A stretch of 64,000 nt of DNA from contig CAZVHP010000007.1 of assembly GCA_964627305.1 (NCBI GenBank), positions 36,939 to 100,938 on the forward strand. The letters run 5' to 3'. Origin of the DNA: an uncultured Ignavibacteriales bacterium (GTDB lineage Bacteria > Zixibacteria > MSB-5A5 > GN15 > FEB-12). The position numbers were made by a program, and so were the translations under genes. Position 1 is the first letter of the stretch, and each line of letters begins with the position of its first letter. Below are positions 3,312-57,032 of the stretch, piece after piece. The notes below the pieces were generated by a model that made no database searches, had not been told where the DNA came from, and saw only the letters and a program-made list of their open reading frames with translations.

Positions 3312-3839
3312 CTACTCCTTCTTGATGAACCGCACGTTCTCCGCCACCGTCACCTCAAACGTGGCCTCCGCCGGAACCTCCGCCTGGCTCCCCTTGATGA
3401 ACAACCCGAAAATGAACAGATAGGACACCAGCTTCTTTCCCTTGCCCCTGTACTCTGGGGTGTCACCGGCAACAGGTATGGTGTTCAGCTCCTGGGGGAC
3501 AAACGGCCCCCTGGGATTGATGCTCTCAAAGCTGAGCTTCAAAGCACCCGGCTTGCCGCCCTTGCCGGCCCGCTTGCCGACAGTCACCACGGCGGTGCCC
3601 ATCGCGCCCGCTTCAACCAGCGTCACACCACCCATCACTATGGGATCGACCAGGTACACCGGCACCTTGTCACCGACCTCAAACTTCGCCGAACTGACAG
3701 TGGAGTTGGGATCAAATTGTACTTTGGCCTTGCTGCCTTTCGGCAACTGGATACCGGCCGCCATCGAGACAGCCGCCCAGGCAAGCACGAGCAGCATCGT
3801 GACCGCAAGGGTATTCCGGATAGTGCGCGAGGGCATCAT
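3312..3839 (-). CDS. Exported protein, possible VirB10/TrbI-like beta domain; last gene of the T6SS operon
   Basis: Sec signal peptide (no lipobox). Pattern LPKGS..VSSAKFEVGDKVPV..PIVMGGVTLVEAGAMGTAVV..GKGGKPGAL, then a hydrophobic stretch LVSYLFIFGLFIKG and VPAEATFEV. Starts 2 bp after the upstream stop. Confidence 0.55.
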   Translation of the reverse strand: MMPSRTIRNTLAVTMLLVLAWAAVSMAAGIQLPKGSKAKVQFDPNSTVSSAKFEVGDKVPVYLVDPIVMGGVTLVEAGAMGTAVVTVGKRAGKGGKPGALKLSFESINPRGPFVPQELNTIPVAGDTPEYRGKGKKLVSYLFIFGLFIKGSQAEVPAEATFEVTVAENVRFIKKE

Positions 3840-3841
3840 AC

Positions 3842-6067
3842 TCAGTTTCCTCCAAGCTCGAGTTCCGGCAACTTCTCTGCCGGATTGTTTAGCAACGTAA
3901 ATGAGACAACAGTGCCGCTGTTCGGGAACGTGACCTCTCCATTGAGCTTATACAGGCAGTACTTGTCCTTCAGCGGCAGCAGCGCCGTCGGATCCTTGCC
4001 CCAGGTCTCATCGGTATCGATATGCGGCAGGTCAAACGCGATATAGATGTCATGGCCCGGGCGCCAGGAAATCGTCTTGACATCGCCACCCACGAACTGC
4101 CCCATCGTCTCCCACTTTGGCGTGCCACGGTCAGGAACAACCTCAATATGCAGATGGCCGTTGTCAGGGACCACATCGACCCGGACCTGGTAGGTCTGTT
4201 CCCGGTTCATCGCACTGGCAGCACTGATGTAACGGTTGACAGCCTCTCGCTCGCGGGCATAGCGGTTGCCCGACAACTGCCCCAGAATACCCTGCAACTC
4301 CCGCACCGCGCCATCAAGCCGGTACGCCGGATCAGGGTTGCTGTTGATCTTGCGAGCGAGCTGCTTGAGCGTCTCGGCCGCCTCGGTTGCATCGACAGCC
4401 AGCACCTCCTGCGTCCTGACCCCTCCGATCACACCGGACATGGCCCGGTACAGGGCCCTTTCACCCGGCTCAAGGCTGGCAGCATTGACCTCCATATTGA
4501 ACGAAATCAGCGTATCCAGCTTCTGCCAGCAGGCGGTATTGGTACGCTCCCCGGCACACTGCGAAAACTGCGCCCACACACGGGCAGTGCGCGCGGCACT
4601 GCCAAACACACTCGTGGAAGAATCCTCCGTGAGTGATTCCAGATCATAGGTGAGCTGCCGATAGCTGTCAGACTCACTCAGTTGCCGCGTCGAGGGATCC
4701 ATCCGCGGCCATTGATCCTGCTGACGTACAACTTCCTCCATCTGCTTTTGCAGACGCGCCAGCTTGTCCGTCAGGCTCTCCGCCTGCAGATCGCGATACG
4801 TGGCCGAAAGATCCCGCGCCGGCGGCATGAACTCACGGAACACCTTCCGCACAAGCCACCTCCCCGAGTAGTGCGAATACGCATCGGCGATAGCTCGCCG
4901 GTCCGATGGCGTCGTTGCGGCCGCCTCGTGGTTATACTTGGAGAGGATATCATCCTCAAGACTGGTCGTTCGACCAAGCTGCCACCACAAGTGCCACATG
5001 AAGACGCCGGAGCAGAACACAAGCCACACGAGAACAAGATTGCGCACTACCCGGCGCACCTTCCGAAAACCCTCGAGCTGGCGGTTGCGAACCATCGACT
5101 TGAGCAGCCAATACACCGGGCGCCTCACCCCGATCGGACGAATAGGGTCCGGCGGCTTGTAGATACTTCGCCCAAGTTCGGCACCAATCTTCTCCGGCTC
5201 AGTTCCCACGCTGGAGACGAAAAAAACCTGGAAGTCCAGCGTGCGCCCCACCGTTATCTTCAAGAACGCCTTGAGTTTGATCAGCACCTCGCGCACACTG
5301 CCGGCCCACTCCGGGTCAGATTGAATGCGCGGGTTGGCCAGTATCTGCTCAACGAACTCGTCATAGTCCTCAGCAAGTACCGGCTCCTCACTGGGATGAA
5401 TCAACGACACATGCTGATCACCCTTGAAACCCGGAAGCACATCGGCCTTGGTAACAACGAGGCCGACCGGAATCGGCAGCCGCTGATCGAGCGGCCCGAG
5501 CTGCTGGATGATACTCTCAAACGCCGCCGCGTGCGACTGCCACTGCGTCGGCGAACCAAGCGTCTTCGGATCGAAGAAGAACAGCAAACCGTCGCACCCC
5601 AGAAGAAAGTCCATGACCTTCTCCGCCGAATTGTCAGCGGCGCCAATCGCGATCGCATCACCGGCGTAGTCATAGGTAACCACGGGAAGCTTTTTGGAGC
5701 GGTCAAGATTGGCCACCATCTTCATGACCGTGTCCTGCCGCGTGAGTGGCGGGAACTGCGGGTCCTGCCGTACATCGACCATCGTCCCCTGACCCGCCGC
5801 CGGGGTCAAACCCCACATCTTCCGATGGTTGGCCAGCAACTCGCCGGCCGTGACACTGTCGCTGACCGACAACTGCAGATCACGAGCCGTCTTGCAGTCA
5901 TCATGCAGCACCGACAGATACACCGTCTTGCCGCTGTTGCTGTGGCCGACAAGACCAACCCGAATACCATCCGGCCACTGGTAAGCACTGTCGCTTTTGT
6001 CCTGCTTGCTCCCGGAGGCCGCTTTCGCACCCTTCTTCCCGAATTTGAGTAGCTTTGCTATATTCAC
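3842..6067 (-). CDS. TssM/IcmF-like membrane protein with N-terminal P-loop GTPase-type domain
   Basis: GHSNSGKT (Walker A/G1), DYAG (G3), LPIPVGLVVTKADVLPGF (G4; resembles the TssM PVYxxxTKxDLLxGF motif). One TM helix (~aa 345-363), then a helical region and a beta-rich C-terminus. Lies two genes after tssK. Confidence 0.6.
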   Translation of the reverse strand: MNIAKLLKFGKKGAKAASGSKQDKSDSAYQWPDGIRVGLVGHSNSGKTVYLSVLHDDCKTARDLQLSVSDSVTAGELLANHRKMWGLTPAAGQGTMVDVRQDPQFPPLTRQDTVMKMVANLDRSKKLPVVTYDYAGDAIAIGAADNSAEKVMDFLLGCDGLLFFFDPKTLGSPTQWQSHAAAFESIIQQLGPLDQRLPIPVGLVVTKADVLPGFKGDQHVSLIHPSEEPVLAEDYDEFVEQILANPRIQSDPEWAGSVREVLIKLKAFLKITVGRTLDFQVFFVSSVGTEPEKIGAELGRSIYKPPDPIRPIGVRRPVYWLLKSMVRNRQLEGFRKVRRVVRNLVLVWLVFCSGVFMWHLWWQLGRTTSLEDDILSKYNHEAAATTPSDRRAIADAYSHYSGRWLVRKVFREFMPPARDLSATYRDLQAESLTDKLARLQKQMEEVVRQQDQWPRMDPSTRQLSESDSYRQLTYDLESLTEDSSTSVFGSAARTARVWAQFSQCAGERTNTACWQKLDTLISFNMEVNAASLEPGERALYRAMSGVIGGVRTQEVLAVDATEAAETLKQLARKINSNPDPAYRLDGAVRELQGILGQLSGNRYAREREAVNRYISAASAMNREQTYQVRVDVVPDNGHLHIEVVPDRGTPKWETMGQFVGGDVKTISWRPGHDIYIAFDLPHIDTDETWGKDPTALLPLKDKYCLYKLNGEVTFPNSGTVVSFTLLNNPAEKLPELELGGN

Positions 6068-6127
6068 GCGAGTCCTGTTCCCACAGTTGAGTTTACTCTG
6101 TCCATGATGCCACCACCACTCCTGTCA

Positions 6128-7045
6128 TCAGCGACCCCGCACGGTTGTCAGCCTCTGGTTAAGGTCCTGAAGCTTCGAATCGCTGTAACCAGACCACAAC
6201 GCGGGCACCAGAAATCCAACAGCGATCCAGACGACAATCAACAGAACCGTCGCCACATACGCCGGACGCCGCTGCCCGAACATCAGCGCCGTATACCGGT
6301 AGCTGCGGAACAACCCCTTGAACTTACCCAGTGCGTCAACAAGTGCCTTCTGCACCCGCTGCAGAAACGTGCCCGGCTTCGTGCGATAGTCCCACGTCTC
6401 AAGATACATCTCCACCAGCTTGTTCGTACGAGACCACCGTTCGAAAAAACCCACGCGCTGCAGGTGAAACTCCAGGGTCGAGCGATCCGAAAGGAGGCTG
6501 TCACCAAGCTGCAGACGCCGGCGACACAACTCCATGATGCGATGCGCATCGCCCTTCGCCTCGAACTGCTCCGGCGTCAGGTCAACCGCCAGCGGCCGAC
6601 CATAGGCGTTCATGAAGTTCGACAGCTCAATCAGAAAGAAACTGTGAAGCTGAAAGCTGTTGTTAAGCGCCCCCGCCCGAAACAGCTTCGGCAACAACTG
6701 CTCCTCAATATACGGCACGTCCTGCCTGACCTCTCGCAAACCCCGGACGTAACTATAGGCCTGGTTGGAACGGTTATCCACATCGACTTCCATCTCAAAC
6801 CACGTCACCAGCGTCTGCACCGTCAGCTCCCGCAGATCCGACGCCTTGAGCGGAGCCTTGTGGATAAAATCCAGAAGAATGTAGTCGGTCTCAACCGCCT
6901 GGTCGCGGTATTCCTGCAGGGCGCCGAACAGGGCGCGGATACCGTTGTACGTCTGCTGGAAAGCCCCGAAATCAAACGCCGAGAAGTTCGTTTCGTAGGT
7001 ACCGATATACCTGAAGAGGTCATCTATGTACTGTCTTACTTTCAT
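6128..7045 (-). CDS. Membrane protein with C-terminal anchor, TssL/DotU-like by topology and position
   Basis: About 265-aa soluble helical region followed by a single C-terminal TM (VATVLLIVVWIAVGFLVPALW). Sits between tssK and the TssM-like gene. I recognise no DotU sequence motif. Confidence 0.5.
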   Translation of the reverse strand: MKVRQYIDDLFRYIGTYETNFSAFDFGAFQQTYNGIRALFGALQEYRDQAVETDYILLDFIHKAPLKASDLRELTVQTLVTWFEMEVDVDNRSNQAYSYVRGLREVRQDVPYIEEQLLPKLFRAGALNNSFQLHSFFLIELSNFMNAYGRPLAVDLTPEQFEAKGDAHRIMELCRRRLQLGDSLLSDRSTLEFHLQRVGFFERWSRTNKLVEMYLETWDYRTKPGTFLQRVQKALVDALGKFKGLFRSYRYTALMFGQRRPAYVATVLLIVVWIAVGFLVPALWSGYSDSKLQDLNQRLTTVRGR

Positions 7046-7046
7046 A

Positions 7047-7082
7047 CTGCCAATCTCTCTGCCAGTTTCTCTGCCAATCTCT
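7047..7082. repeat. 3 x 12-bp tandem repeat filling the tssK/tssL-like spacer
   Basis: CTGCCAATCTCT CTGCCAGTTTCT CTGCCAATCTCT read directly from the sequence. Confidence 0.85.
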
Positions 7083-7086
7083 GTCC

Positions 7087-8508
7087 TTAATCAACAATGT
7101 AAAGCTTGATATCGGCCTCTGACAAGTTGTTTAGCTGCTTCGCATCCTTAAGACCCCGGAACCACAGACCGGCCCTCCCGGCCGAATCCACCCGAATCAT
7201 GTCCTGTCCCCGCAGCGCCACCTTGCTCCCGAAAGTCGTGGTATCAATCACCATGGGATTCGTCTCCCCAAGACTGACCTCGCCAAATCCGATACGAACA
7301 TTGATCGCATTCCACTGGCCCTGATCCATCAGGTCCTTCTCCATCAGAATAACACAATCGCTCACGCTGACCGGTGAGGTCAGGTTCAACGACACAATGG
7401 CAAAATCGTTCCAGTCCTCGCGCACGCACTCCTTGTGGCTGACAGCGGCGAAGGTCAACCCCTTGTAGCTGATCGTATCGCTGGCCACCGGCTCCGGCGC
7501 AATGTCCCCCTGCGCAAGAAACGCCACGAGCTGCTGCAAAGTAGTGAGCAGCTTGTCGATTTGCTCGAAGTGCCTGCCGAGATCGAGATGTGTGTATTCA
7601 GCTAATAGAAAACTGTCGATGGTTCGCGCGAAGGTGCGATACTCGGTGCGCAACTGCTTCTGGAAGAAACGGTCGGTCAGGAAGTCCTTGACACCCGGCA
7701 TGTACGCCAGCAGCGTCGTCAGCACCCGGAACAAACTCTTGTACTGATTCACTATCGTCAACGGATGCGGAGCGTTGCGCCCCAGTGAAACCGTATCGAA
7801 CCTCGCCGCCGCATGTAGTCCAAGCTGACTGACCAGATGCCTCAGATTCGAGACCAGATCAGCCCCGGCCCCGGCGGGCGTCAAACCGCTCGCCACGCGC
7901 GTAATGGCTGTCATGAGACTGTCAAGCCGGTCACGAAGCTCCCGAACCTTGCCATACAAACGCTCATGTGCCGCCACCGAAACGCACGGCGGGAAGTAAA
8001 AAGGCGACTCCACCAGGCTGTCACCACTTACCTCCAGTTGCGCGATCTGCACACACCGCGCCTGCGACACGGACGGCTGCTGCCCCACATGAACCTCGTA
8101 GGCCGGCACACAGTACGGCAGACGGGGTACCGGCTCGTTCGGATCCGCCTGCCCCACCTGCTTTTTCGCCTCAGCGGCAATCACCACCCAGACCCCGATA
8201 GCTTCTGTCACCCCCTCGGCCTCCCCGATCACCACCCCCCCCTCGCCGGGAGCGATCTCAATCAGGCTGCCATCCTCGGTGACGGCATGACAACGTGTTA
8301 CCTCAACACGGACCGCACTGCCCCGCAGACTGGCATGATACTCAAGCGCACCACCGTCACTGCTCGGGATCAGCCCGTAGTTGTCACCCACCGGCCGGCC
8401 ATACCACCGGGACAGCTCCTCGAAATATCGCTCCTGGTCGGCAAGGTGATTCCGGGATACCAGCATCCCGTCCTGCCAGTTCACTGAGCGGAGTCTGAAT
8501 TCACTCAT
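7087..8508 (-). CDS. tssK: T6SS baseplate subunit TssK (T6SS-iii-like N-terminus)
   Basis: N-terminal VNWQDGMLVSRNHL, NYGLIP, CHAVTEDGSLIEI, GQADPNEPVPRLPY, YFPPCVSV and a later EYTHLD motif match Bacteroidota-type TssK. Confidence 0.8.
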   Translation of the reverse strand: MSEFRLRSVNWQDGMLVSRNHLADQERYFEELSRWYGRPVGDNYGLIPSSDGGALEYHASLRGSAVRVEVTRCHAVTEDGSLIEIAPGEGGVVIGEAEGVTEAIGVWVVIAAEAKKQVGQADPNEPVPRLPYCVPAYEVHVGQQPSVSQARCVQIAQLEVSGDSLVESPFYFPPCVSVAAHERLYGKVRELRDRLDSLMTAITRVASGLTPAGAGADLVSNLRHLVSQLGLHAAARFDTVSLGRNAPHPLTIVNQYKSLFRVLTTLLAYMPGVKDFLTDRFFQKQLRTEYRTFARTIDSFLLAEYTHLDLGRHFEQIDKLLTTLQQLVAFLAQGDIAPEPVASDTISYKGLTFAAVSHKECVREDWNDFAIVSLNLTSPVSVSDCVILMEKDLMDQGQWNAINVRIGFGEVSLGETNPMVIDTTTFGSKVALRGQDMIRVDSAGRAGLWFRGLKDAKQLNNLSEADIKLYIVD

Positions 8509-8532
8509 GTTTCGTCTCTTCTTGCTCCATCT

Positions 8533-9513
8533 TTATCCGTTAGCCGCAGCCACCGGCTTGCTGCCGGCACTGTCCGTCCGCACTTTTACTGCGCCCCCGG
8601 TCAGACACCACGATGTCCCCAGATACGCCGCTCGCTCCTGCGTGCCGATCGAGCGACCGCATACCGGTAACCTGAATCGCAGACGCCATTGCAGGTGCCC
8701 CGGGTTGCACAAAGCCATTATCTGTTCAAGCAAGCTGCGCCGCGCCCCCCCGGGCAGCCACTCCTCTATGTGGGCGTCACCTATCTCACACAGCTCAAGC
8801 TCATAGTACGAATCAAGGTCGGTGAAACGATCACCAAGCACCCAGTCATCGCCGAGCCGGCTGAACGACGAGTTCAGACGCGACTGAATACTCCCGTCAA
8901 TTGGGTGCTCAGACGGCAGATTTTCGTGGACCTCCATCCGGCAGTCCAACAGCAAACCGAGTACCCACGCCATTCCCTGGGGATTGCCCGACCATTCATG
9001 GAAGCTCCGCATCAGGGCTGTCAATAACCCCAGCCGAGAATCGGCCGTACAGGCGCGGCGATGAGCCGGACCGAAAAGATCAATGATCCGCGCATAGTGA
9101 CTCGGCTCCGTCACCGCCTCCTCATAGCGCATGCGTTCAAACGCCATCAGCGCCGACTTCTTGACCGCATGACCGTCGATTGGCGCCATCATGCCGCGCG
9201 CCCCGGATTCCCAGTGTGAACTGACCGATGACGAATGCCCGGAAGAGGTGAAAAACTGCCAGGGCATCACGTCGACAATGCCGCTGATGCCCACATCGAG
9301 CACCACCTCCGTCTCGTCCGACAAGAGCGTGCCCGCCTCAGGATCCTGACTGCGAATCTGCCCGTCATAGTCCTCATACGCGCCAACCAACCTGACAAAA
9401 ATCCGCTCCGGGGCTACCCCCAGCCTGACAAGCTGATTGATCGCCGCGACGAAACTCGGGCGACATCGCCAATCAACCAGCCGCGGCATGACCCTGGCAG
9501 TACGCTCACTCAT
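8533..9513 (-). CDS. tssG: T6SS baseplate subunit TssG with N-terminal PASTA-like domain
   Basis: Overlaps the tssF stop (ATGA). GIVDVMPWQFF resembles the TssG G-x-YDxLPExLF motif; SRLGDDWVLGD and YLGTSWCL are TssG-like. The first ~75 aa are PASTA-like (GQIRSQDPEAGT..VVLDV). Confidence 0.72.
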   Translation of the reverse strand: MSERTARVMPRLVDWRCRPSFVAAINQLVRLGVAPERIFVRLVGAYEDYDGQIRSQDPEAGTLLSDETEVVLDVGISGIVDVMPWQFFTSSGHSSSVSSHWESGARGMMAPIDGHAVKKSALMAFERMRYEEAVTEPSHYARIIDLFGPAHRRACTADSRLGLLTALMRSFHEWSGNPQGMAWVLGLLLDCRMEVHENLPSEHPIDGSIQSRLNSSFSRLGDDWVLGDRFTDLDSYYELELCEIGDAHIEEWLPGGARRSLLEQIMALCNPGHLQWRLRFRLPVCGRSIGTQERAAYLGTSWCLTGGAVKVRTDSAGSKPVAAANG

Positions 9514-11186
9514 CGCTCACTAACCTCAATCACAAACTGCGTATTCACGACCGAGCGCTGCTTCAGAAACCGCTCCAGCCGTGACCTCAGCAGATTGACT
9601 TCCTCCGCACTTCCAAAGTCCTCAGGATTGATCGTCAGGTGCACCACGATACACCGCTGCACGCCACCGTTGATCCTGCGAGTCCCGCTGCGACACTCCG
9701 CCGCCAGAATGCGCGGGTCGAACGCCCGCGACCACATGGCAACATCGCCAAAAGTCAAAGCGCGATCGCGCTGTCGCAACCGAACGGTGACCTCCTGCAT
9801 GAGCTGCTGACGCGTCCGAGCAGGAATGGCTCCCGCCGTCGATGTCAGGTTCCGCACCTCCGACAAACCCGGATGACCTTCATACATGCGAGTGATCCGG
9901 CCCGGCTCAATCCCGTTGGCCGTAACACCATCAGTCACACTATACTCGATACTGAGCGAATTGGGCACACCCTCGGCGGCGTGCATGAAATCAAACCACA
10001 GCACGACATGACCGTCGCGCTCCGTAAAGGTGTATCTCGGCTCCGAATCGGCGCTCTCGGTACTGTCAGCCGGCAGGTACTGCCTGCCGTCGGAATCGGT
10101 GACCCGCTCGATCGTGAGCACACTGTCCGCATCCTCCGGTATCACCACATCAATCAACGGCGCCCCGCCCGTGTGACGAAACAGCGTAAGCGTATACCGG
10201 TTCGCAACAACTATAGCATTGAAAACGAAATTCACCGCTCCGCTCAACAGCTCGCGGTTGCCGCGCTCCGGCAAATCAATGCGCAACCAGTAACAGCTGT
10301 CGGCACCACTCAGAGCAGGCTGCCCCAAAGACGAAGCCGACAGCCTCTCCAGCATTGCCGTCGGCGGAGCACCCGCGCCCCAGCGGCTGGAGATATCGCC
10401 CGGAAAAACCACAAACGCATCCAGCAGATCGCTGAACAAGTCACCGCTGGTCCGCAGCCCCCCCCAGTCATCAGCACCGGCCGGAGTAATAACCCGATCG
10501 ATCCATGAGGACTTCCCCGGACAGAAACCAAAACCGTCACCAACCGCCCCGGAGGATTGACCCAGCGGGTGCCAGTACCCCCATTGAAACTGAGACCGAA
10601 GCTCGGCGGGACAATCGAGAAACACAACAGCATTGTTCAGAGCCGACGGCGGCCCGGCAAATGCGATACCGACAAACAGCTCCCAACGATCGCCATTGGC
10701 CGGCCGGCTCTCGATAGCAGCCCTCATCTCACGATCCACCGCAACGCCCGGACTTATCGGCAACACGAAATCGCCATTGCGAAGCACCATATACCGGCAC
10801 GTCGCATCAAGAACCGGCCAGTCGGTCAGAGGGGAGAAGAAGTACGTCCGGGCACCCTCGCGTGACTCACGGTAGAAAAAACGAGTGTGAGCATCGATCT
10901 CCACCACCGGATCAACCGTGCTGCACTGCAGAACACAATGGGCCGGTGTCGGCCACCGCCCGGCATGACCACAGACCGTCTTCAGAAGCGCGCTTCTGGC
11001 AACCTCCCACGTCTGCTCCAGGTCAGACTCAAGCGCCGCAAGCTCATGAGCGCTCGCCTGCAACAGCATGCGCAGAACCGGATCCGCCCGCTCAGGAGAA
11101 CCAGGCGTATCGGTTCGGAATCGGCGCAAGGTAGCATACAACTCCGTGAAGATCTGTTCCTGGGTTCGCTTTGCCGCACGTGCCAT
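9510..11186 (-). CDS. tssF: T6SS baseplate subunit TssF
   Basis: DPVLRMLLQASAHEL, PTPAHCVLQ, FFSPL and a baseplate-J-like C-terminus (TDGVTANGI..TSTAGA..LRQRDRALT..D). Lies between tssE and tssG. Confidence 0.8.
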   Translation of the reverse strand: MARAAKRTQEQIFTELYATLRRFRTDTPGSPERADPVLRMLLQASAHELAALESDLEQTWEVARSALLKTVCGHAGRWPTPAHCVLQCSTVDPVVEIDAHTRFFYRESREGARTYFFSPLTDWPVLDATCRYMVLRNGDFVLPISPGVAVDREMRAAIESRPANGDRWELFVGIAFAGPPSALNNAVVFLDCPAELRSQFQWGYWHPLGQSSGAVGDGFGFCPGKSSWIDRVITPAGADDWGGLRTSGDLFSDLLDAFVVFPGDISSRWGAGAPPTAMLERLSASSLGQPALSGADSCYWLRIDLPERGNRELLSGAVNFVFNAIVVANRYTLTLFRHTGGAPLIDVVIPEDADSVLTIERVTDSDGRQYLPADSTESADSEPRYTFTERDGHVVLWFDFMHAAEGVPNSLSIEYSVTDGVTANGIEPGRITRMYEGHPGLSEVRNLTSTAGAIPARTRQQLMQEVTVRLRQRDRALTFGDVAMWSRAFDPRILAAECRSGTRRINGGVQRCIVVHLTINPEDFGSAEEVNLLRSRLERFLKQRSVVNTQFVIEVSER

Positions 11187-11213
11187 AGTCTTTACCCGCA
11201 GGTTCCTCTGATT

Positions 11214-11597
11214 CTACTCAACAATGCAACTGACATCAAGCATCTTCTCAACGCCACCCTCACGGTACGTGGCCGTTACCTTCACGATCAGACCGATTTG
11301 CCGATGCTTCCCCACATCACCCTCCGAAAAAACAACATCGACATTATACAGCCGAGGTTCATGAATACCAATGGCAGTACGGATACTGGCCCGAACATCC
11401 GCCTTACTGGCCGTGTGCAGGTCGGTAAACTCACGTTCCCACAGCATACACCCGAACTCCGGCAGAAACGGCAACTGCCCCACGCGCGTCGAGATTATCA
11501 GCCTGACCGAGTTCACCAGGCTGTCCCTGAGATTGCACCGTGGGAAATGACCCTCTTCAAGAGTCAGGGGAAGTGAAAGGTATTCCGAGCGTTCCAT
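11214..11597 (-). CDS. tssE: GPW/gp25-family baseplate wedge protein TssE
   Basis: YLSLPL..CNLRDSL..LIISTRVGQLPFLPEFGCMLWEREF..HEPRL. Start overlaps the vgrG stop (TGATG). Confidence 0.88.
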   Translation of the reverse strand: MERSEYLSLPLTLEEGHFPRCNLRDSLVNSVRLIISTRVGQLPFLPEFGCMLWEREFTDLHTASKADVRASIRTAIGIHEPRLYNVDVVFSEGDVGKHRQIGLIVKVTATYREGGVEKMLDVSCIVE

Positions 11598-13456
11598 CAG
11601 TTGATCTTTACTATCGCACCTTTGATTTCGGTCATAGCCGAGCCTTCCACCGCCGCCTGGGTACCGGACATCTTGGCCGATACACCGCCTTTGGACTCAT
11701 GGTTCATGCCCCCCTCGCTCTTGAAGTTGGCCGAGGCCTTCAACTCAATATCAGACTGCGCCGTCCCCTTCAAAGCGCCACCCGACTTCAGCACAATGTC
11801 TCCGGAAGCAGACTCAAGCGTGATATTAGCCCCCTTCAGCGTGATATCACCCGAGGACTCGATCGCAATACACGGCCCGTCCATCGACAGCAACACCGCG
11901 TTCGTCCCATCCTTTTGCGTGATCGCTATTGTCTCCTTGCCGTCTTCATCCACGAACACGATCTGATTGCCAAGACGAGTACGAAACACCTTCTTGGAAA
12001 CCGCACCGCCGGCCAGGCACTCAGAGGAACTCAGCGGCGGCGTATCTCTCTTGTTGTACAGTGAGCCAAGCACAATGGGAGCATCGGGGTTACCCCGCTC
12101 ATAGGCGACCACCACCTCATCGTCAACCTCGGGCAAGGCGAACCACCCCCGCGTTCGGCCGCCATCAAAGGTCATGCAACGCAGAAACTCGGTTTCCTGG
12201 TCTGCACGATGCCACGACAGCCTGACCTTCACCCGACCAAGGTTCTCCGGGTCGTTGTTGTCGGTGACCACACCACACTGGATGTAGCGGAACGGATGCC
12301 TCTCCTGGCGCTGCGGCGGGAGCGCCAGCTCGGTCGGCGTGCACGTGAAGCTGTTATGGTACTGCCCACCCTCATCCACGAAATGGTCAACCGACTTGAT
12401 CCAGTAGTCGCCGTCAAGATCCCCGAGTCCCTCCAGCCTGATTCTCGAGCCGCACGATACCGCCGGCACATTGGAACTGCCATGACAGACCAGCATACCG
12501 CCCACCGAGGTCTCCACCCGACGGGTCAGCGTCTGATCGACTGCGGCCTGACTGGCGTGCCTGGCCGCCGGGGCAACGCCCACGGTCGGAAATATCAACT
12601 CCGACGCATCCAGCGAGGCCCGGGAAAGCTGCGATGTCGCCACCCGCAAGGCCGAACGATCGGCATCACCCTCCACCAGGTCCTTGTTGACCGGATCCCA
12701 GACCTGGCTCCGGAAACTCAGTGCACCCGTCTGCAAACCAAGAGTAAATGAGCCAAGCGTCTCGCGCCATTTCAACGTCTCGTTCATCTGGCTCGACTCG
12801 GCCTTGTCAATCGTGAAGGCCCTGCCGTCATAATAGGCAAAATATCCCTTCTCGGAGGCCAGACGCTGAATGAACTGGTAATCCGTTTCATAGTATTGCA
12901 CGTGCGAGTCAACTTCCGTGTTCAGGCTTCCCGAGGCACTCAGAATCGCACCCCCGCTGATCCTCCCCAGAGTAATCGAATACTCACTCAGGATCGCATT
13001 GAACACCGAGGCGGCATCCTCACCGGACCCCCAGACCCGCGTTCGAACCGACGCATCCAGGGCAATCGTCGGACTGTAAGCGACAATATGGATGACGTTG
13101 ATCTCGCTGACGGCCTGCTGCAACTCAACCGCTGTGACAACACCGATGAACTCAAGTTTCCGGGAGGAATCGACCACATCGCCCCTGGGGGTCAGACGCA
13201 GCGTAATCGACTTACCCATCAAAGCACTGTAAGTACCAACATTCTCAAATTCCTGATCACGCTCAACAACCCCACTGTGCCGCACGGTTACGCGAAGGCT
13301 GTGATGGCTGTCACACGGCTGCTCGAGCCGAACCGAGAGAACGTCATCCGTGATCTCCCGGCCGTCAACCGTCAGGGCACAGGCGACATTGATACCAATC
13401 GACTGATCCAATGCCTTCTTGCTTTTGCCTTTGTTCTGATTCCTGATAATATCCAC
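11597..13456 (-). CDS. vgrG: VgrG spike protein (gp27-gp5 like)
   Basis: VQYYETDYQFIQRLA, VVTDNNDPENLGRVKV, GWFALPEVDDEVVVAYERGNPDAPIVLGSLYN and a C-terminal beta-helix ending IKGAIVKIN. Confidence 0.93.
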   Translation of the reverse strand: MDIIRNQNKGKSKKALDQSIGINVACALTVDGREITDDVLSVRLEQPCDSHHSLRVTVRHSGVVERDQEFENVGTYSALMGKSITLRLTPRGDVVDSSRKLEFIGVVTAVELQQAVSEINVIHIVAYSPTIALDASVRTRVWGSGEDAASVFNAILSEYSITLGRISGGAILSASGSLNTEVDSHVQYYETDYQFIQRLASEKGYFAYYDGRAFTIDKAESSQMNETLKWRETLGSFTLGLQTGALSFRSQVWDPVNKDLVEGDADRSALRVATSQLSRASLDASELIFPTVGVAPAARHASQAAVDQTLTRRVETSVGGMLVCHGSSNVPAVSCGSRIRLEGLGDLDGDYWIKSVDHFVDEGGQYHNSFTCTPTELALPPQRQERHPFRYIQCGVVTDNNDPENLGRVKVRLSWHRADQETEFLRCMTFDGGRTRGWFALPEVDDEVVVAYERGNPDAPIVLGSLYNKRDTPPLSSSECLAGGAVSKKVFRTRLGNQIVFVDEDGKETIAITQKDGTNAVLLSMDGPCIAIESSGDITLKGANITLESASGDIVLKSGGALKGTAQSDIELKASANFKSEGGMNHESKGGVSAKMSGTQAAVEGSAMTEIKGAIVKIN

Positions 13457-13537
13457 CGCGCATCCTCACTGGCAGTTACGGGGAAACATACCCCGGGTTA
13501 GCATCCGACACCGTCTCGAAACCCGGGCACAGGAGCG

Positions 13538-13573
13538 CGGGGCGGCGGTACACAGGTGCACTACGCCGCCCCG
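13538..13573 (-). terminator. GC-rich hairpin between tssD and vgrG (attenuator or mRNA-stabilising stem)
   Basis: Perfect 10-bp inverted repeat CGGGGCGGCG / CGCCGCCCCG with no clear U-tract. Confidence 0.45.
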
Positions 13574-13601
13574 GGTCATCCACTGCATCTGTCACACGCG
13601 C

Positions 13602-14012
13602 TTAGTGCGCCCAGTAGTTCTCCAACTCGGCATCGGCAATCTTGATCGCATTGCACGATACATGGAAATACTGGTAGATCTGCTCGTCAGGGTTTGACTT
13701 CACGTCGGGAATGACCTCCTCGAAGTGGGTGATGAAACCATCCTTCCACTCCAGAGTCTTCATCTCAGCGCCATCCTTGTTGAAAAAGGTGACCCGGCCC
13801 GACTTCCAGTTCGTCTTACTGGTGTCAGCAGCCCAGCGAGCAATGTCGACATTGCCACCCTCGTCAGATTCCACCTTGATCTTGATCAAACCGGCGTGAG
13901 CACGATCGGTCGGACGTCCCGTCTCATCCTTATTCGTGTAAATGTGATACGATACGGCAAAGACGTGCGGGTACTCGACACCATCGATCTCGAGTTTTGG
14001 ACGGTGCGCCAT
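13602..14012 (-). CDS. tssD: T6SS tube protein TssD (Hcp, Bacteroidota type)
   Basis: MAHRPKLEIDGVEY..DETGRPT..GLIKIKVES..WKSGRVTF..MKTLEWKDGF. RBS AGGAGG at 14021-14026 supports ATG at 14012. Confidence 0.88.
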   Translation of the reverse strand: MAHRPKLEIDGVEYPHVFAVSYHIYTNKDETGRPTDRAHAGLIKIKVESDEGGNVDIARWAADTSKTNWKSGRVTFFNKDGAEMKTLEWKDGFITHFEEVIPDVKSNPDEQIYQYFHVSCNAIKIADAELENYWAH

Positions 14013-14169
14013 AATCAATACCTCCTGGGTTTTGCTTCAGTCCTGTTTATTGATCAGAAACTCTGTTTGGACTTCGTCAAATTAGTGACTATTCGGTTAT
14101 CTCGTTTTCAATCAGTAATCCGCGTGCGGCAGAGCTGCAACAACCGGGCCGACTGCCTGCTTGTACGGC

Positions 14170-15594
14170 CTACTTGTCCTTTACGTTGGTCGCGTTGTCC
14201 TCATTCCACGCCATGAACTCAATATTGAATGTCCGTGCCGGATACTTCGGATTCAGCGATACCTTGATATCTACCTCCTGACGCTTGCGCATCTCCTCAC
14301 TGGCGAAGATCTCCACCGTGTAGTCCTGCAGGATGTTGTCTCCTCCACTGATTGCCCGCATGAACTTGTCGATGTCCTTGCGAAGCGCATCGATGAACTT
14401 GCCGTCGATCACGTTGAACGTCTGCTTGTTCAGATAATTGCGCAGCGACTTGTACACGTAGTCATAGGTACGACGGATCGAATAGACGTTGAACGTCTCC
14501 TTGGAATACAATGTCGCCGCCCCCATCGCTACCGGCTGACCCTCGAAACTGACAACCGGGTTGACACCCTTTTCATTTACCTTGGAAGCGTCCGGCTGGT
14601 TGAGCCGGAAACGGACATGGTTAGCCTCGTTGATCTTGCCGTACTTGTACCCGGCCGCGGGCTGCTGCATGCCGACCGACTCATCGCCGCGATACACCAT
14701 ACCAGCGACAGCCGCCGAAGGCGGTATCCACATGTTGTCATCCTCGTACTCGTTGGCCTGTCGCGCAAGAAGCCAGTTCGCATACAATGAGACATACTGC
14801 TTGGATTCATCGACCCCCTGCAGACTGTCCATGCTTGGATCATCGAGCAGCTCCATGATATCCTCGAATGACTCGAAATTCGGCATATCCGTTATCACAT
14901 GGAGCTTGTTCGGCAGACCAATCTGCCGGGCAAAAGTGTCGATCTTGTCAGCCCCGCCAAGATAGCCGGGGACAACACACATCGAGTAACAGCGCTTGAT
15001 TCCCCACTCACGGAACTCATCCGCTATCGCCTTGGCCAGTTGCTCAAACTTCTCCTTGTCATCCGGGTCCATTAGTTGCTCGATGCCCGCATTGACAAAA
15101 AACGCATCCACCTTGTCATCCGGCTCCGCCTGCGCGTTGGCAAAAAACTTGTCAACCGCCCGATAGGTCGTTTCCAGCTCACGGCTGGCCCGATGCACCG
15201 ATTTCATGTTCTTCTGAAGGTTAGCCTCCAGCTTGGTGGCCTCCTCCGCCACAGTCTTCCGAATGGCGTCCACATTGCTGTCCGAGGAAAGCATCTCTAT
15301 CCACGCACTCAGGCGTTCGCTCAGCAACTCCCGCTGACGGGCGTGCTCGGCCTTGCTCAGGAACTCCTTACGCTGGAACTCCTTTTTGGGGTCGAGCCAC
15401 TCGACGCCGCGAACCAGGTCACCCTCTGCTGTCTTGAACGACGGCAGCAGGCTGGCCAGCTTCTTGAAGTCGGCAAAATGATCGCCAAGCAACCCGGCGA
15501 ACTCCTCCTCGGAGACTTTCTCTACCGCCTGAGCGGCGGGCTGAGCCGCACTTTGCTGCTGCGGCTGCAACTCTTGTTTCTCTTCTTCACCCAT
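14170..15594 (-). CDS. tssC: T6SS contractile sheath large subunit (DUF5458-like TssC)
   Basis: RELETTYRAVDKFF.N, YSMCVVPGYLG, ANWLLAR, IPPSAAVAG, QPAAGYKYG, YSIRRTYDYV.K and a C-terminal P.YPARTF motif fit T6SS-iii TssC. Start placed at the ATG of MGEEE. Confidence 0.88.
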   Translation of the reverse strand: MGEEEKQELQPQQQSAAQPAAQAVEKVSEEEFAGLLGDHFADFKKLASLLPSFKTAEGDLVRGVEWLDPKKEFQRKEFLSKAEHARQRELLSERLSAWIEMLSSDSNVDAIRKTVAEEATKLEANLQKNMKSVHRASRELETTYRAVDKFFANAQAEPDDKVDAFFVNAGIEQLMDPDDKEKFEQLAKAIADEFREWGIKRCYSMCVVPGYLGGADKIDTFARQIGLPNKLHVITDMPNFESFEDIMELLDDPSMDSLQGVDESKQYVSLYANWLLARQANEYEDDNMWIPPSAAVAGMVYRGDESVGMQQPAAGYKYGKINEANHVRFRLNQPDASKVNEKGVNPVVSFEGQPVAMGAATLYSKETFNVYSIRRTYDYVYKSLRNYLNKQTFNVIDGKFIDALRKDIDKFMRAISGGDNILQDYTVEIFASEEMRKRQEVDIKVSLNPKYPARTFNIEFMAWNEDNATNVKDK

Positions 15595-15609
15595 ATATCC
15601 AAACCTCAC

Positions 15610-16053
15610 TTATTCGCTTAGCAGATCAACATAGTATCGGGCCACCTTCAGCAGGGCAGCCTTGGCCTTCTCGTCCTGCAACACCTTCTTCAGCGCCGCG
15701 TTCTTCTTCAACTGCTTGTCAAGATCGTTAAGAATCTCCTTGCGGTAGTACGTCCGCCGCAAATAGTCGTTCTGCTCGATGAGCTGTTTGGACTGGAAAT
15801 CCTTCATCGACCCGACCCTGAACTCAGCCGTAGCAGACTCGCCCGTTGTCGTCTCCAACTCTGCCTCGAACGACGGGTGGAACTTCTCGAAAACGTCCTT
15901 GAGATTGTTGCACTCAACGGGTACGGCTTCGGCATCCTCGTCGTTGTTCAGCCTGGCGACGTACAAGGATCGGTTGGATGGAAGAAGCTCAACGGGAATG
16001 GAATCATCTTTGACCTTCCGCTCCCGGGCTCCCAGAAAGAACTTGTTGGACAT
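15610..16053 (-). CDS. tssB: T6SS contractile sheath small subunit (T6SS-iii TssB)
   Basis: LPSNRSLYVARL..VFEKFHPS..MKDF..QNDYL..KQLKKN. Directly upstream of tssC. Confidence 0.85.
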   Translation of the reverse strand: MSNKFFLGARERKVKDDSIPVELLPSNRSLYVARLNNDEDAEAVPVECNNLKDVFEKFHPSFEAELETTTGESATAEFRVGSMKDFQSKQLIEQNDYLRRTYYRKEILNDLDKQLKKNAALKKVLQDEKAKAALLKVARYYVDLLSE

Positions 16054-16080
16054 CTGTCGCCCTCCGATTGTGTGATATGA

Positions 16081-18624: not shown

Positions 18625-18723
18625 GAAATCCCGCGCTTTGGAACCTGAGTTACATTTGAAGGATTGCACCAAGACAAGCCGAATGCGAAATATGACCCTA
18701 TGTACAACCCGGTTAAGTAAGAA

Positions 18724-18752
18724 AACATACTCTGCGCCCACAGGGGTGTCAA
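18724..18752 (-). promoter_or_regulatory. sigma70-type promoter for the clpV-tssBCD operon
   Basis: TTGACA-N17-TATGTT on the minus strand, about 100 bp upstream of the clpV ATG. Confidence 0.65.
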
Positions 18753-18935
18753 GCTAATTGTCTACCGACCCAACCCATGGCGCAGCACTACGTTCACACT
18801 GTCTGCTTATATACGATCGTTTGGACCTCTTTTTTGGTTTTCTGGCACTTCTCCCGCAAGAATCTGCCGATAACCGGCATGACCGGAGAAACCCCCGCCC
18901 GCTGCCGGCCATCTCTTTGCAGTGCACACCCCACC

Positions 18936-19367
18936 TTACCCATCAACAGGACGGAAAGACTCAATTATGCGATCCATCTCCACCCCCCGCGTCTGCAGCG
19001 TCTTCTTCGAAAAATTGCCCGAAAACGTGTAGCCGGTGCCGTCAAGAATCATGTACAGGTTCCGCTTGTATATGACCGTGTTGTCAACCGGAATCCACTT
19101 GTATATACACTCATGCGCCGCAGTGCCGTTGCCAAGCGTGATCGCCTCGTCCTTGAGAACCTCCGTTCCCTGAAGCTGCTCCAGCGCCGCGTCAATACGC
19201 ATACGGGCGAAGTCTGCCAGATCGGCCCCCGCCGTATCAGGATCAACCACCAGTTGTATCATGTGCTGTACGCCGCTGTCATCAGGTCCCATGAACACAT
19301 ACACAGTGCGATTATCCCAGCCTTTGGGCAGCTCGACCACGAAAGGCGGTATCTGCGATTTACCCAT
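18936..19367 (-). CDS. DUF1795/DcrB-like (Eag-type) T6SS adaptor
   Basis: LPKGWDNRTVYVF..DLADFAR..LEQLQGTEVL..IIESFRP, a PsbP/DcrB-like pattern. Ends the PAAR-effector cassette. Confidence 0.7.
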   Translation of the reverse strand: MGKSQIPPFVVELPKGWDNRTVYVFMGPDDSGVQHMIQLVVDPDTAGADLADFARMRIDAALEQLQGTEVLKDEAITLGNGTAAHECIYKWIPVDNTVIYKRNLYMILDGTGYTFSGNFSKKTLQTRGVEMDRIIESFRPVDG

Positions 19368-19388
19368 TACCTGTGCAGCTCCTCTCGG

Positions 19389-20159: not shown

Positions 20160-20164
20160 ACCGA

Positions 20165-21847: not shown

Positions 21848-21903
21848 GCTATCCGCCCTGACCGAAAACGCTCAATGTGACCTGTTTCATCGCCTGCATA
21901 GCA

Positions 21904-22998
21904 TCACGCATCCGCCCGGGTAGTTGCGCCCGAGGTCGGAAATTCGACCGACCACTGACCGGGTGGCACGTTCTCCACCTTCTTGTATCCGTTGGAATCC
22001 AGCGTGCCTTCCAGTATCTGGCCGTTGTCGAAGATCAACCGATAGGCGGCGTTCGGAACCACGTTCCCCTCACCGTCCTTCAAACTGATCTCGACATAAT
22101 CGCGGTACTCCAACAAACCCGAACGCGCCTGAGCCTGCCCAACCGTCGCCATGAAATAGTACTCCGGCATGGAATAGCCGCGCTGTAGCTCCTGCGCCGT
22201 CTGGACATCATCCGTATCCTCAGTGTACCGGTATTCCCAGTCAGCCTCGATCTTGCCACCGGACACCGTAACCTTAATGGTATCAATCAGATCGTCAGCC
22301 GAGGAGATATCCCGCTCGAAAATGCGAAACTCAGCCTCCGTACCCGACTCAAACCCCGATACATCGGCTGACAACGTTACCGTGTCGCCAACCCGCGCCT
22401 GCTTCTCCGACCACCTGGCATTGGTGATAACGAACAGCGCCAGTTCGTAATTCCCCTGCTTGACGCCCGTTTTCTCCACCTTGCCGGACAATGCCCCCTG
22501 TGATTGACTGCCGTCCGGCGCCTTCATCTCGTATTTCACACCGACAATCGGCTTACCGCCCTTGTCGACAACCTTCACATTCAGAAAATGCCCCTCGTCG
22601 GCCTCCGCGTCCTTGTCCGCGATACTCGGCGCCGCGGCATTCCCACTACCCCCGCCACCGCCGGCACCACCACCCGCGCCGCCACCACCACCGCCGGAAC
22701 CGATCAGCACAGTCGGGCAGCCGGGCGGAAGAATCGTGTCCGGCGGACCCGAGCAGGTAAGCATGTCCCCAACACAGGCTGCGGGCAGATTACCAATAAG
22801 AACCGTCGGACAGCCGGGCGGCATAATAGGCCCCCCCACATGCGGAGTCGGAGGCACCGTGGGATTCGCCATCGGACAGGTATGCATATCCCCAACACGA
22901 GCCGCCGGCATACCGCCAATCAGAACCGTAGGTTCTCCCTTGACAATAACACCACCATGAACAGTAGTATCACCCATGCGAGCCGCCGGTTTGCCCAT
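21904..22998 (-). CDS. PAAR protein with Gly linker and transthyretin-like/Ig-like extension
   Basis: PAARMGD, PAARVGD, PAACVGD repeats with His/Cys metal ligands, a poly-Gly linker, and two D..G.P.....Y......G....G.L TTR-like units. RBS AAGGAG before ATG 22998. Confidence 0.9.
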   Translation of the reverse strand: MGKPAARMGDTTVHGGVIVKGEPTVLIGGMPAARVGDMHTCPMANPTVPPTPHVGGPIMPPGCPTVLIGNLPAACVGDMLTCSGPPDTILPPGCPTVLIGSGGGGGGAGGGAGGGGGSGNAAAPSIADKDAEADEGHFLNVKVVDKGGKPIVGVKYEMKAPDGSQSQGALSGKVEKTGVKQGNYELALFVITNARWSEKQARVGDTVTLSADVSGFESGTEAEFRIFERDISSADDLIDTIKVTVSGGKIEADWEYRYTEDTDDVQTAQELQRGYSMPEYYFMATVGQAQARSGLLEYRDYVEISLKDGEGNVVPNAAYRLIFDNGQILEGTLDSNGYKKVENVPPGQWSVEFPTSGATTRADA

Positions 22999-23014
22999 TG
23001 ATATATCTCCTTGC

Positions 23015-23148
23015 ACCGATCGGTACCGATAGTCCTGAGAACGACCGCGATCTGCCCCGACCAAAACCGCGCCGCAATCTGCTCGCCGAAGGCCGGACAG
23101 CCCGCGCTCTCATCCCATGCTTGAGGATTATACGGCACACCGATCGGT
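23015..23148. promoter_or_regulatory. Divergent promoter region with two ACCGATCGGT palindromes and a TATAAT box
   Basis: ACCGATCGGT at 23015-23024 and 23139-23148; TATAAT on the minus strand at 23127-23132. Confidence 0.45.
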
Positions 23149-23246
23149 TAAACCAGTCCTTTTTTTGATTGAAACAAAGCGTTGCGGTTGCCCGCCCGGT
23201 CGTATAACTTGCGGCGAACAGGGACCGTGACAATGTGGACAAAGGC

Positions 23247-29627: not shown

Positions 29628-29780
29628 GTCGAAACCTCGCTTCGCGACCCCTTCGGGGCAGGGGTTTCGACCTACGTCATGCGGGGCGGGGGTTGCGACC
29701 TACCTTTGGGGCACCGGGCAGGCGGGAGCCCTGCCGCGCACATGCACTTCATCTTATATGCGGCTACGGGGCAGGCCTAC
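29628..29780 (-). repeat. Cluster of GTAG-type REP-like palindromes between convergent genes
   Basis: Inverted repeat GTCGAAACC (29628-36) / GGTTTCGAC (29663-71). Minus strand reads GTAGGTCGAAACCCC, GTAGGTCGCAACCCC and GTAGGCCTGCCCC. Confidence 0.5.
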
Positions 29781-46245: not shown

Positions 46246-46247
46246 GT

Positions 46248-47840: not shown

Positions 47841-47842
47841 AG

Positions 47843-51926: not shown

Positions 51927-51985
51927 GTTCTTTCTCGTATTGGCTGTTCTGGTGTATTCTGGCGTGAAGTTACAGCGCTGGAAGC

Positions 51986-52014
51986 AATATGGCAACCGTT
52001 AAGCAGGATGTCAA
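51986..52014 (-). promoter_or_regulatory. sigma70-type promoter of serS
   Basis: TTGACA-N17-CATATT. Confidence 0.55.
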
Positions 52015-52019
52015 AGCGA

Positions 52020-57030: not shown

Positions 57031-57032
57031 GA

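Follow-up and report, generated by a model that had tools for sequence, protein, structure and literature searches.

How is a type VI secretion system (T6SS) anchored in the cell envelope when the genes of the known membrane complexes are absent? This question is raised by a 64,000-nt stretch of DNA (the window) from an uncultured Ignavibacteriales bacterium (GTDB Zixibacteria; MSB-5A5; GN15; FEB-12), which corresponds to positions 36,939-100,938 of contig CAZVHP010000007.1 in assembly GCA_964627305.1. The window carries a complete type VI secretion operon on its minus strand (window 3312-23064), and this operon ends, after tssK, with the genes for three proteins that we refer to as P0002, P0001 and P0004, none of which received an NCBIfam assignment. 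According to the passages of Bongiovanni et al. (2024, PMC10781749) on which we draw, two T6SS membrane complexes have been characterised, TssJLM and the Bacteroidota complex TssNQOPR, and the origin of T6SS membrane complexes is an open question. We propose, with a probability of about 0.6, that P0002, P0001 and P0004 form the envelope module of a T6SS type without known membrane-complex genes, and that P0001 is a reduced equivalent of TssM in it. The evidence comes from domain anatomy and motif conservation, from synteny and co-occurrence with the T6SS, from the absence of the known anchor proteins, and from a remote kinship of the GTPase (G) domain of P0001 to both the DO-GTPases and the TssM NTPase. 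The three proteins and their parts, identified from open reading frames (ORFs), hydropathy and AlphaFold2 (AF2) models, lie in the window as follows.

6128..7045, minus strand: P0002, 305-aa tail-anchored all-helical protein in the tssL position (ORF, AF2)
6182..6268, minus strand: P0002 membrane helix, residues 260-288 (hydropathy peak 2.66; inside AF2 helix 259-304)
3842..6067, minus strand: P0001, 741-aa GTPase / membrane helix / exported-domain protein, proposed TssM equivalent (ORF, GTG start)
5987-6067, minus strand: P0001 lysine-rich N-terminal segment, residues 1-27 (conserved; net charge +5)
5132..5986, minus strand: P0001 cytoplasmic G domain, residues 28-312 (G1 41-48, DYAG 133-136, TKAD 206-209, FFVSS 282-286)
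4982..5053, minus strand: P0001 single membrane helix, residues 339-362 (hydropathy peak 1.87; inside AF2 helix 315-376)
3845..4981, minus strand: P0001 exported part, residues 363-741, 379 aa (AF2: helical to ~620, beta domain 624-725)
3312..3839, minus strand: P0004, 175-aa exported protein (ORF; start 2 bases past the P0001 stop)

A first-pass annotation, made from the DNA letters alone, had described the 741-aa protein as a GTPase with a full motif set, one transmembrane segment, an exported part of ~375 aa and no N-terminal hairpin. The ORF, the alignment, the hydropathy profile and the AF2 model all bear this description out. The G motifs read GHSNSGKT (residues 41-48), VVTYDYAG (129-136), PVGLVVTKADVLPGF (200-214, enclosing TKAD) and VSS (284-286). 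Ten residues (G41, N44, G46, K47, D133, Y134, G136, K207, D209 and S285) are invariant in an alignment of 39 relatives that spans 38-78% identity, a pattern not to be expected by chance. Altogether, 210 of the 7997 candidates scored were relatives of P0001 at E<=0.001, and the 120 relatives listed span 716-744 aa; homologues of P0001 and of P0002 carry labels like candidate division Zixibacteria and GN15. The only hydrophobic segment found by hydropathy is residues 339-362, and an N-terminal transmembrane hairpin is absent. Because the flank of this segment has a charge of +6 on the N-terminal side versus -2 on the C-terminal side, the N-terminus is predicted to lie inside and residues 363-741 to be exported. 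The AF2 model (pLDDT 83.4) consists of a basic N-terminal helix, the G domain (~30-310), the helix 315-376, a helical region and the beta domain. The N-terminal segment has a consensus like K.FK.FKKGAKAA.K.KGKK, is modelled as a low-confidence helix and is not hydrophobic; it might be an amphipathic membrane-binding element that replaces the TssM hairpin. Sequence varies most in the exported part (35-44% identity, compared with 63% for the G domain). Its residues 377-741 matched no Pfam family at E<=10 except for a chance-level match to HalX, and an ESM Atlas search with them gave no usable neighbour, all TM scores normalised by the query being below 0.3.

The 305-aa neighbour, P0002, had been called tail-anchored and without a recognisable DotU motif. 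Indeed, it has a single hydrophobic segment (260-288) near the C-terminus and is therefore tail-anchored, with a tail of ~17 exported residues past this helix, and its profile comparison with DotU stayed at control level (values below). In the AF2 model (pLDDT 87.6), residues 1-245 are all-helical and are followed by the helix 259-304. We found 100 relatives of 272-315 aa and no Pfam family for P0002 at E<=10. When P0002 was modelled together with residues 28-385 of P0001, the complex score was 0.45 (runs 0.45, 0.50 and 0.41), and the best of three controls reached 0.01; the runs share at least 82% of their contacts, and the partner pLDDT is at least 76. Of the 80 solved complexes 58 reach the mark used, as do 2 of the 110 mismatched pairs; among those passing, scores of 0.60 or below belong to only seven of the 80 solved complexes and to both mismatches. 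Because custom alignments were used, these counts apply approximately. The prediction gives weak support to a P0001-P0002 contact and is no proof of one. It nudges the odds of a contact upwards, because the fixed adjacency of the two genes across lineages makes the prior fair.

P0004 has a signal-peptide-like segment at residues 9-33, and its 66 full-length homologues of ~175 aa also carry signal peptides. It matched no Pfam family (E<=10) and no PDB sequence. P0004 is possibly a periplasmic partner of P0001.

Is the module a part of the T6SS? The first-pass annotation had assigned both P0001 and P0002 to it, and both synteny and co-occurrence agree. In a scan with one genome per species, 122 genomes encode a P0001 relative, and 80 loci were kept. 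By tblastn, P0002 was present in 75 of these loci, P0004 in 75, TssK in 72, TssG in 65, TssF in 64, VgrG and TssE in 58 each, TssC and Hcp in 54 each, TssB in 51 and ClpV in 44. The counts fall with distance from the GTPase gene because of the 10-kb flank and of contig ends; wherever upstream DNA is present, the order clpV-tssB-C-hcp-vgrG-tssE-F-G-K-P0002-GTPase-P0004 is constant. In four of the five loci without P0002 (L060, L069, L078, L079), the GTPase gene is the first on its contig. The fifth, L007, is on the complete chromosome of G342, where tssC is ~420 kb away and the locus is therefore split. Of the five loci without P0004, four are cut off by a contig end, and one (L050) has no explanation.

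In the phylum sample of 251 genomes, 130 encode the GTPase family and 129 encode TssC (PF17541); as related genomes are not independent, these figures stand as plain counts. The tallies of the GTPase and of PF17541 per family are identical except for one genome, G276, which has the GTPase and no TssC match because hcp and tssC are fragmented at its locus (L195; G276:C3:695000-714999). Here, hcp and tssC match as several out-of-frame fragments, and the locus is either decaying or affected by assembly indel errors. Synteny and co-occurrence thus support that P0002 and P0001 belong to the T6SS locus.

The known anchor proteins are missing from the window's own genome, which is 95.7% complete. It contains no TssM match at E<=0.01, no TIGR03348 match genome-wide, and no match to TssN or TssO (PF17555, PF17561) at E<=0.1, and DotU and TssJ gave only sub-threshold matches on other contigs (E 0.061 and 0.031). 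The TssR model PF17643 had no match in this genome either, but was equally silent in the controls. Canonical TssM (PF14331, ORFs of ~1120-1160 aa; for example, G156:C18:40529-41302) is present in 22 of the 251 phylum genomes. By family, it was found in 3 of 3 (f6), 12 of 14 (f7) and 3 of 3 genomes (f15), and f6, f7 and f15 have neither the GTPase nor PF17541. The only genome with both canonical TssM and the GTPase is G262, where they are on different contigs. The two proteins are nearly exclusive in the phylum.

The sheath protein of the window matches PF17541 at 249.9 bits and the tube protein matches PF17642 at 70.6 bits, both of which we take to be models built on the T6SS-iii of Bacteroidales. 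PF17541 was silent in 14 of 14 control genomes, and since these include an E. coli genome positive for TssM, DotU and TssJ, the core of the system is not of the proteobacterial type.

More divergent relatives show how deep the module goes. A divergent subfamily within the phylum (620-690 aa) matches only profile positions 3-411/484 of the family model, and its exported part is therefore different. In three loci of the phylum (L192, L193, L195), tssK, a 303-322-aa tail-anchored P0002 homologue and the divergent GTPase gene stand in a row. The same arrangement, with a 311-312-aa tail-anchored protein and an 819-837-aa GTPase, is present in two loci of uncultured bacteria (L197, L198), one of which (L198) also has clpV, tssC and hcp nearby. 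When the P0002 alignment was compared by hhalign with these tail-anchored homologues, the probability was 99.1% for all five and 94.9% for L197 and L198 alone. For the most part, the remote relatives of P0001 (27-36% identity, 617-1053 aa) retain the G domain and a single helix near residues 325-380, followed by an exported part that varies; the helix was found by hydropathy in 18 of 23. For an 821-aa remote subgroup, the genome and metagenome contig searches gave no match.

What kind of GTPase is P0001? The first-pass annotation had suggested a link to the TRAFAC GTPases of conflict systems, and this link was borne out: P0001 passes the cut-off of Pfam DO-GTPase2 (PF19993, 27 bits), scoring 31.2 bits at full length and 33.7 bits when the G-domain piece is taken by itself, over positions 2-174 of the 226 in the profile, and among the remote relatives scanned, every one with a Pfam assignment is a DO-GTPase. 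Its ESM Atlas neighbours are DO-GTPase clusters (features 0.92); among the ten rows listed by structure, one has a TM score of 0.60 and the other nine have 0.65-0.72. An exhaustive phmmer search with residues 28-385 against 1.84 billion representatives gave 80 matches at E<=0.001, 35 of them at E<=1e-30. A profile of 62 P0001-family sequences, divergent relatives included, aligned by hhalign with DO-GTPase1 (PF19975) at 95% (score 63.6, 204 columns), and the shared region runs from the P-loop to G4, with hhalign probabilities of 96-97% over 167-168 columns for DO-GTPase2/DO-GTPase1. In several respects P0001 differs from these GTPases. In the parts of Kaur et al. (2020, PMC7159879) considered here, DO-GTPases are defined by a conserved Walker-B glutamate, are encoded together with GAP1 and often with a paralogous second GTPase, and lie beside variable effectors. 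The glutamate is not conserved in the P0001 family, where D, K, E, R, N, Q and S all occur directly behind DYxG; three bona fide DO-GTPase2 members read D(L/S)(P/S)GE. Unlike DO-GTPases, P0001 has neither a GAP1 partner nor a paralogous second GTPase, its membrane helix is C-terminal to the G domain and followed by a large exported domain, and its gene is fixed in T6SS operons rather than placed in variable effector neighbourhoods.

The kinship to TssM was studied with a set of 22 TssM proteins (22-100% mutual identity) taken from E. coli Sakai and from 101 sampled Pseudomonadota genomes; a search with E. coli TssM had returned only enterobacterial relatives of 72-99% identity, and a related-locus scan only those of at least 54% identity. 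All 22 proteins (1131-1374 aa) keep GxxxxGK[ST]; the degenerate P-loop that the first-pass annotation had ascribed to many TssM proteins was thus not observed in this set. In hhalign comparisons, the G domain of P0001 aligned with the cytoplasmic domains of TssM at 91.9% (score 54.3, 54 columns, P 6.8e-7, a single-pair value that is not calibrated on a database). When the membrane helix was included, the alignment reached 91.1% (score 54.5) over 186 columns and paired FQVFFVS with RGVYFTS, the stretch PVYWLL with YF..LF, and the helix of P0001 with the third membrane helix of TssM. With the 62-sequence profile, the probability was 94% and the score 63 over 157 collinear columns, which run from DYxG (DTAG in TssM) through TKADxLxGF (TKxDLxGF) to FQVFFVS (RGVYFTS). 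Reversed controls scored 15.6-17.3 and 20 shuffled controls 12-23. TssM and DO-GTPase2 aligned with each other only at the P-loop (33%, score 34.7, 15 columns). IcmF-related_N (PF14331) ranks third of 24,736 Pfam families for the G-domain piece (E 0.018), but is below its cut-off (14.8 versus 25 bits) and matches at the G4 block (profile positions 26-82), not the P-loop. In the opposite direction, the family HMM gave 18 weak matches at E<=1 in the 101 Pseudomonadota genomes, five of which are in TssM ORFs (profile positions 176/187-216), and two of six TssM N-terminal pieces gave weak DO-GTPase2 matches at the block of the G4 region. We consider it fairly probable from these profiles that the P0001 family has a real but remote kinship to TssM and forms a bridge between the DO-GTPases and the TssM NTPase.

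The likeness to TssM proposed by the first-pass annotation therefore stands for the G domain, with a profile match of 92-94%, and fails for the family models, for the single helix and for the exported part, which is at control level. As judged from the sequence, P0001 is not a member of the TssM family: it has one membrane helix instead of three and matched neither TIGR03348 nor any other NCBIfam model at E<=0.01, nor PF06761 or PF06744. In both proteins, the cytoplasmic P-loop domain carries GxxxxGK[ST], hhhhDxxG and a TKxD with LxGF behind it, and both have a layout of NTPase, membrane helix, exported helical part and beta domain, although the resemblance of the exported folds is an impression. 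The P0001 gene likewise follows tssK and the gene of a tail-anchored protein; in the cited part of PMC10781749, tssL and tssM follow tssK in Proteobacteria. In contrast, TssM is larger than the 741-aa P0001, it has three membrane helices (as stated for A. tumefaciens in PMC3346141) with the NTPase between the second and the third, and its periplasmic IcmF-related and IcmF_C domains are not matched at the profile level by the exported part of P0001. The proposed TssL-likeness of P0002 divides in a similar way: tail-anchored topology, a helical cytoplasmic domain and the gene position are shared, whereas no DotU domain is found by sequence or profile. T6SS-iii offers another comparison. The Zixibacteria system matches the same Pfam models for sheath and tube, and its module would likewise be a lineage-specific replacement of TssJLM encoded beside tssK. 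TssNQOPR, however, comprises five genes versus three here, and the Zixibacteria module has an NTPase and no lipoprotein; T6SS-iii has a five-helix TssN encoded between tssK and tssG, which the Zixibacteria operon does not have. In the same passages of PMC10781749, T6SS-iii was found only in Bacteroidota and in none of more than 20,000 other complete genomes.

From these data we infer how the module might work. In P0001, a single membrane helix would join the cytoplasmic TRAFAC GTPase domain, which is of the DO-GTPase2 kind, to a helical stalk in the periplasm with a beta domain at its C-terminal end, and the helical cytoplasmic domain of P0002 would lie beside its G domain, where TssL works in Proteobacteria. 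Together, P0001 and P0002 would form an inner-membrane base on which the TssK baseplate docks; in known T6SS, docking to the membrane complex is the role of this baseplate subunit. The periplasm would be spanned by the exported stalk of P0001 and perhaps also by P0004, which is soluble and exported and might cap the periplasmic end. Binding and hydrolysis of GTP might switch the conformation or the oligomeric state of the P0001-P0002 assembly, and this switch might gate the docking of the TssK baseplate and firing, by analogy with the nucleoside triphosphate (NTP) cycle of TssM-TssL in Agrobacterium. There, according to the section of Ma et al. (PMC3346141) used here, TssM has hhhhDXXG and (N/T)KXD motifs and hydrolyses ATP (GTP hydrolysis is given as an unpublished observation), it shifts its conformation on NTP binding, and hydrolysis is needed for Hcp recruitment to TssM-TssL.

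Several results weigh against P0001, P0002 and P0004 being such an envelope module with a TssM equivalent. By sequence, the G domain is that of a DO-GTPase and not of TssM: a Pfam scan of 36 of the 80 phmmer matches assigned 29 to DO-GTPase2 and/or DO-GTPase1, seven to no family and none to a TssM domain, and the 62-sequence profile aligned with DO-GTPase2 (97%, score 83, 168 columns) more strongly than with TssM. The TssM likeness is invisible to HMM-to-sequence searches of PDB chains, in which P0001 and the alignments of P0001, P0002 and P0004 found nothing relevant. A Foldseek comparison of the full P0001 model, which the first-pass annotation had called for, listed, like VIA-align, GTPases only and no TssM chain; the G domain filled these lists, so the result carries no information on the fold of the exported part. 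The exported part of P0001 scored 18.2 in hhalign against the periplasmic part of the 22 TssM proteins, compared with 21.5 for the reversed control, and its beta domain and helical part were each at control level as well. P0002 scored 13.9 against 30 DotU domains (16.1 with a broader profile; controls 10-24), and the complex score for P0001 and P0002 is weak. No outer-membrane component that would support physical anchoring was identified, and no RNA run was listed among the 24 sequencing runs that contain the stretch. P0004 is not a lipoprotein like TssJ, as the conserved lipobox cysteine is absent in its homologues (40 N-termini inspected, 19 aligned). Furthermore, the five divergent loci encode, in place of P0004, an unrelated and cytoplasmic-looking protein of 144-289 aa that lacks a signal peptide, and therefore the conserved pair is P0002 and the GTPase, P0004 being specific to the main Zixibacteria branch. 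The replacing proteins share an N-terminal motif like (I/V/L)YG(T/S)F.D.PG(S/G)Q across two lineages, and their genes lie directly behind the GTPase gene at the following positions.

L192:7213-8049, minus strand: post-GTPase gene
L193:12868-13302, plus strand: post-GTPase gene
L195:8399-9268, minus strand: post-GTPase gene
L197:12473-13327, plus strand: post-GTPase gene
L198:12511-13380, plus strand: post-GTPase gene

Which other explanations would fit the DO-GTPase affinity? P0001 could be a DO-GTPase that was recruited to the T6SS independently, so that it would be an analogue of TssM by shared TRAFAC ancestry and convergence, and neither a reduced nor an ancestral form of it. The passed DO-GTPase2 cut-off, the DO-GTPases among the Atlas and phmmer relatives, the P-loop-only alignment of TssM with DO-GTPase2 and an exported part unlike that of TssM all favour this account. 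The TssM match, however, is not made via the P-loop but is a collinear 157-column block past Walker B; this block contains G4 with its unusual xLxGF extension as well as the FFxS strand, and the membrane helix follows in register. Its score of 63 is practically that for DO-GTPase1 (63.6), the weak DO-GTPase2 matches of the TssM pieces are reciprocal to it, and the gene position is that of tssM. We regard independent recruitment as unlikely on balance, though a serious possibility. A different suggestion, that P0001 and P0002 are a GTPase-centric defence cassette which merely lies beside the T6SS, is extremely improbable. It could appeal to the DO-GTPase2 family match, but it is already contradicted by the missing GAP1 and second GTPase, by neighbours without any Pfam family, by the non-conserved Walker-B glutamate and by the fixed order and co-occurrence with T6SS genes across 130 genomes and other lineages.

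P0001 might instead be a transmembrane signalling switch, in which the exported part senses a cue from the envelope or from a neighbouring cell and the G domain relays it to T6SS assembly, while the apparatus is held by other proteins or is not anchored at all. This would resemble the threonine-phosphorylation and TagQRST-type control that exist in other T6SS. The exported part is, as would be expected of a sensor, the most variable region and is wholly replaced in the divergent relatives, and in the cited parts of PMC7159879 DO-GTPases are predicted to be dimeric switches that relay conformational change in GTPase-centric conflict systems, 13% of them having N-terminal membrane segments. However, no other conserved membrane protein that could hold the apparatus is encoded in the operon (the two ORFs that separate the PAAR gene from clpV lack conservation in the related genome G225), the GTPase gene is linked to the T6SS as strictly as the core genes are, and it is near-exclusive with canonical TssM and occupies the tssM position after tssK and a tail-anchored protein gene. 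A role in signalling alone therefore seems to us quite improbable, but signalling and structural roles are not mutually exclusive and could coexist in P0001.

The operon as a whole has the order PAAR, two unassigned ORFs, clpV, tssB, tssC, hcp, vgrG, tssE, tssF, tssG, tssK, P0002, P0001, P0004. Its genes other than those of the module were assigned as follows.

21904..23064, minus strand: PAAR-domain spike-tip protein, head of the cluster (PF05488, E 5.1e-25)
16081-18741, minus strand: clpV (Pfam/NCBIfam)
15610-16053, minus strand: tssB (Pfam/NCBIfam)
14170-15609, minus strand: tssC (Pfam/NCBIfam)
13602-14018, minus strand: hcp (Pfam/NCBIfam)
11597-13456, minus strand: vgrG (Pfam/NCBIfam)
11214-11597, minus strand: tssE (Pfam/NCBIfam)
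9510-11186, minus strand: tssF (Pfam/NCBIfam)
8533-9513, minus strand: tssG (Pfam/NCBIfam)
7087..8508, minus strand: tssK (PF05936, 28.6 bits versus a cut-off of 23.4; TIGR03353, E 5.5e-14)

The two ORFs between the PAAR gene and clpV (256 and 560 aa; window 19389-21847, minus strand) have no confident Pfam family, with weak HEAT and FlgD_ig hints. They were considered as parts of the membrane module and rejected, as tblastn gave no match at the same position in G225 (L196), which carries a second PAAR gene there. Probably, they represent variable cargo of the effector, immunity or adaptor type rather than core components. A gene transcribed divergently from that of the PAAR protein (window 23235-25028, plus strand) encodes a Ser/Thr protein kinase whose C-terminal domain is PEGA; two CsgG-like proteins follow (25152-26204 and 26254-27579, plus strand), the second of which has TPR repeats. 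Phosphorylation-type control of T6SS occurs in some Proteobacteria; the kinase and CsgG-like genes may represent such control or may be unrelated. The remainder of the window contains a gene for a 1611-aa protein (29777-34612, minus strand) with a beta-helix, three PKD domains, BACON domains and a C-terminal FlgD_ig-like domain, which is probably a large surface or secreted protein. Near 34 kb, the GC skew flips its sign from ~-0.1 to ~+0.2 and the cumulative skew has its minimum, and the large genes on both sides of this point (T6SS operon and dcw cluster) are on the minus strand; the change may mark where replication starts or ends, or else a join made in the assembly. The cell-division and cell-wall cluster (44125-63994, minus strand) includes Mur ligases, an MraY-like gene of glycosyl transferase family 4, ftsA (55807-57030) and ftsZ (54339-55781), and the DNA from the 34-kb point up to this cluster encodes a seryl-tRNA synthetase and several two-component regulators.

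What does the envelope module proposed here mean for the T6SS? We found no published description of a GTPase-type T6SS in Zixibacteria, in a search made mostly at the level of titles and abstracts and with the supplements of PMC7159879 and PMC10781749 outside its scope, and no T6SS-linked DO-GTPase, although the Figure 1 source data of PMC7159879 (DO-GTPase contexts), outside this search, could list one. It is conceivable, though doubtful in our view, that the P0001 family is a surviving intermediate between the DO-type TRAFAC conflict GTPases and TssM. If this were true, the T6SS membrane complex would have begun as a single-pass GTPase with a tail-anchored partner encoded after tssK, which Proteobacteria elaborated into TssL-TssM-TssJ and Bacteroidota replaced with TssNQOPR; the Zixibacteria type would be a distinct T6SS subtype bridging i and iii, and the nucleotide native to the T6SS anchor would be GTP, not ATP. 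Roughly half of the phylum genomes in the sample, and at least one further lineage, combine a T6SS-iii-like sheath and tube with a different and simpler envelope module, whose main protein, P0001, is demonstrably, on profile evidence, a GTPase linked to both TssM and the GTPases of conflict systems. If confirmed, the module would be a third solution to T6SS anchoring, it would provide a minimal system for asking what the nucleotide cycle of TssM is for, and it would offer a concrete hypothesis for the origin of TssM.

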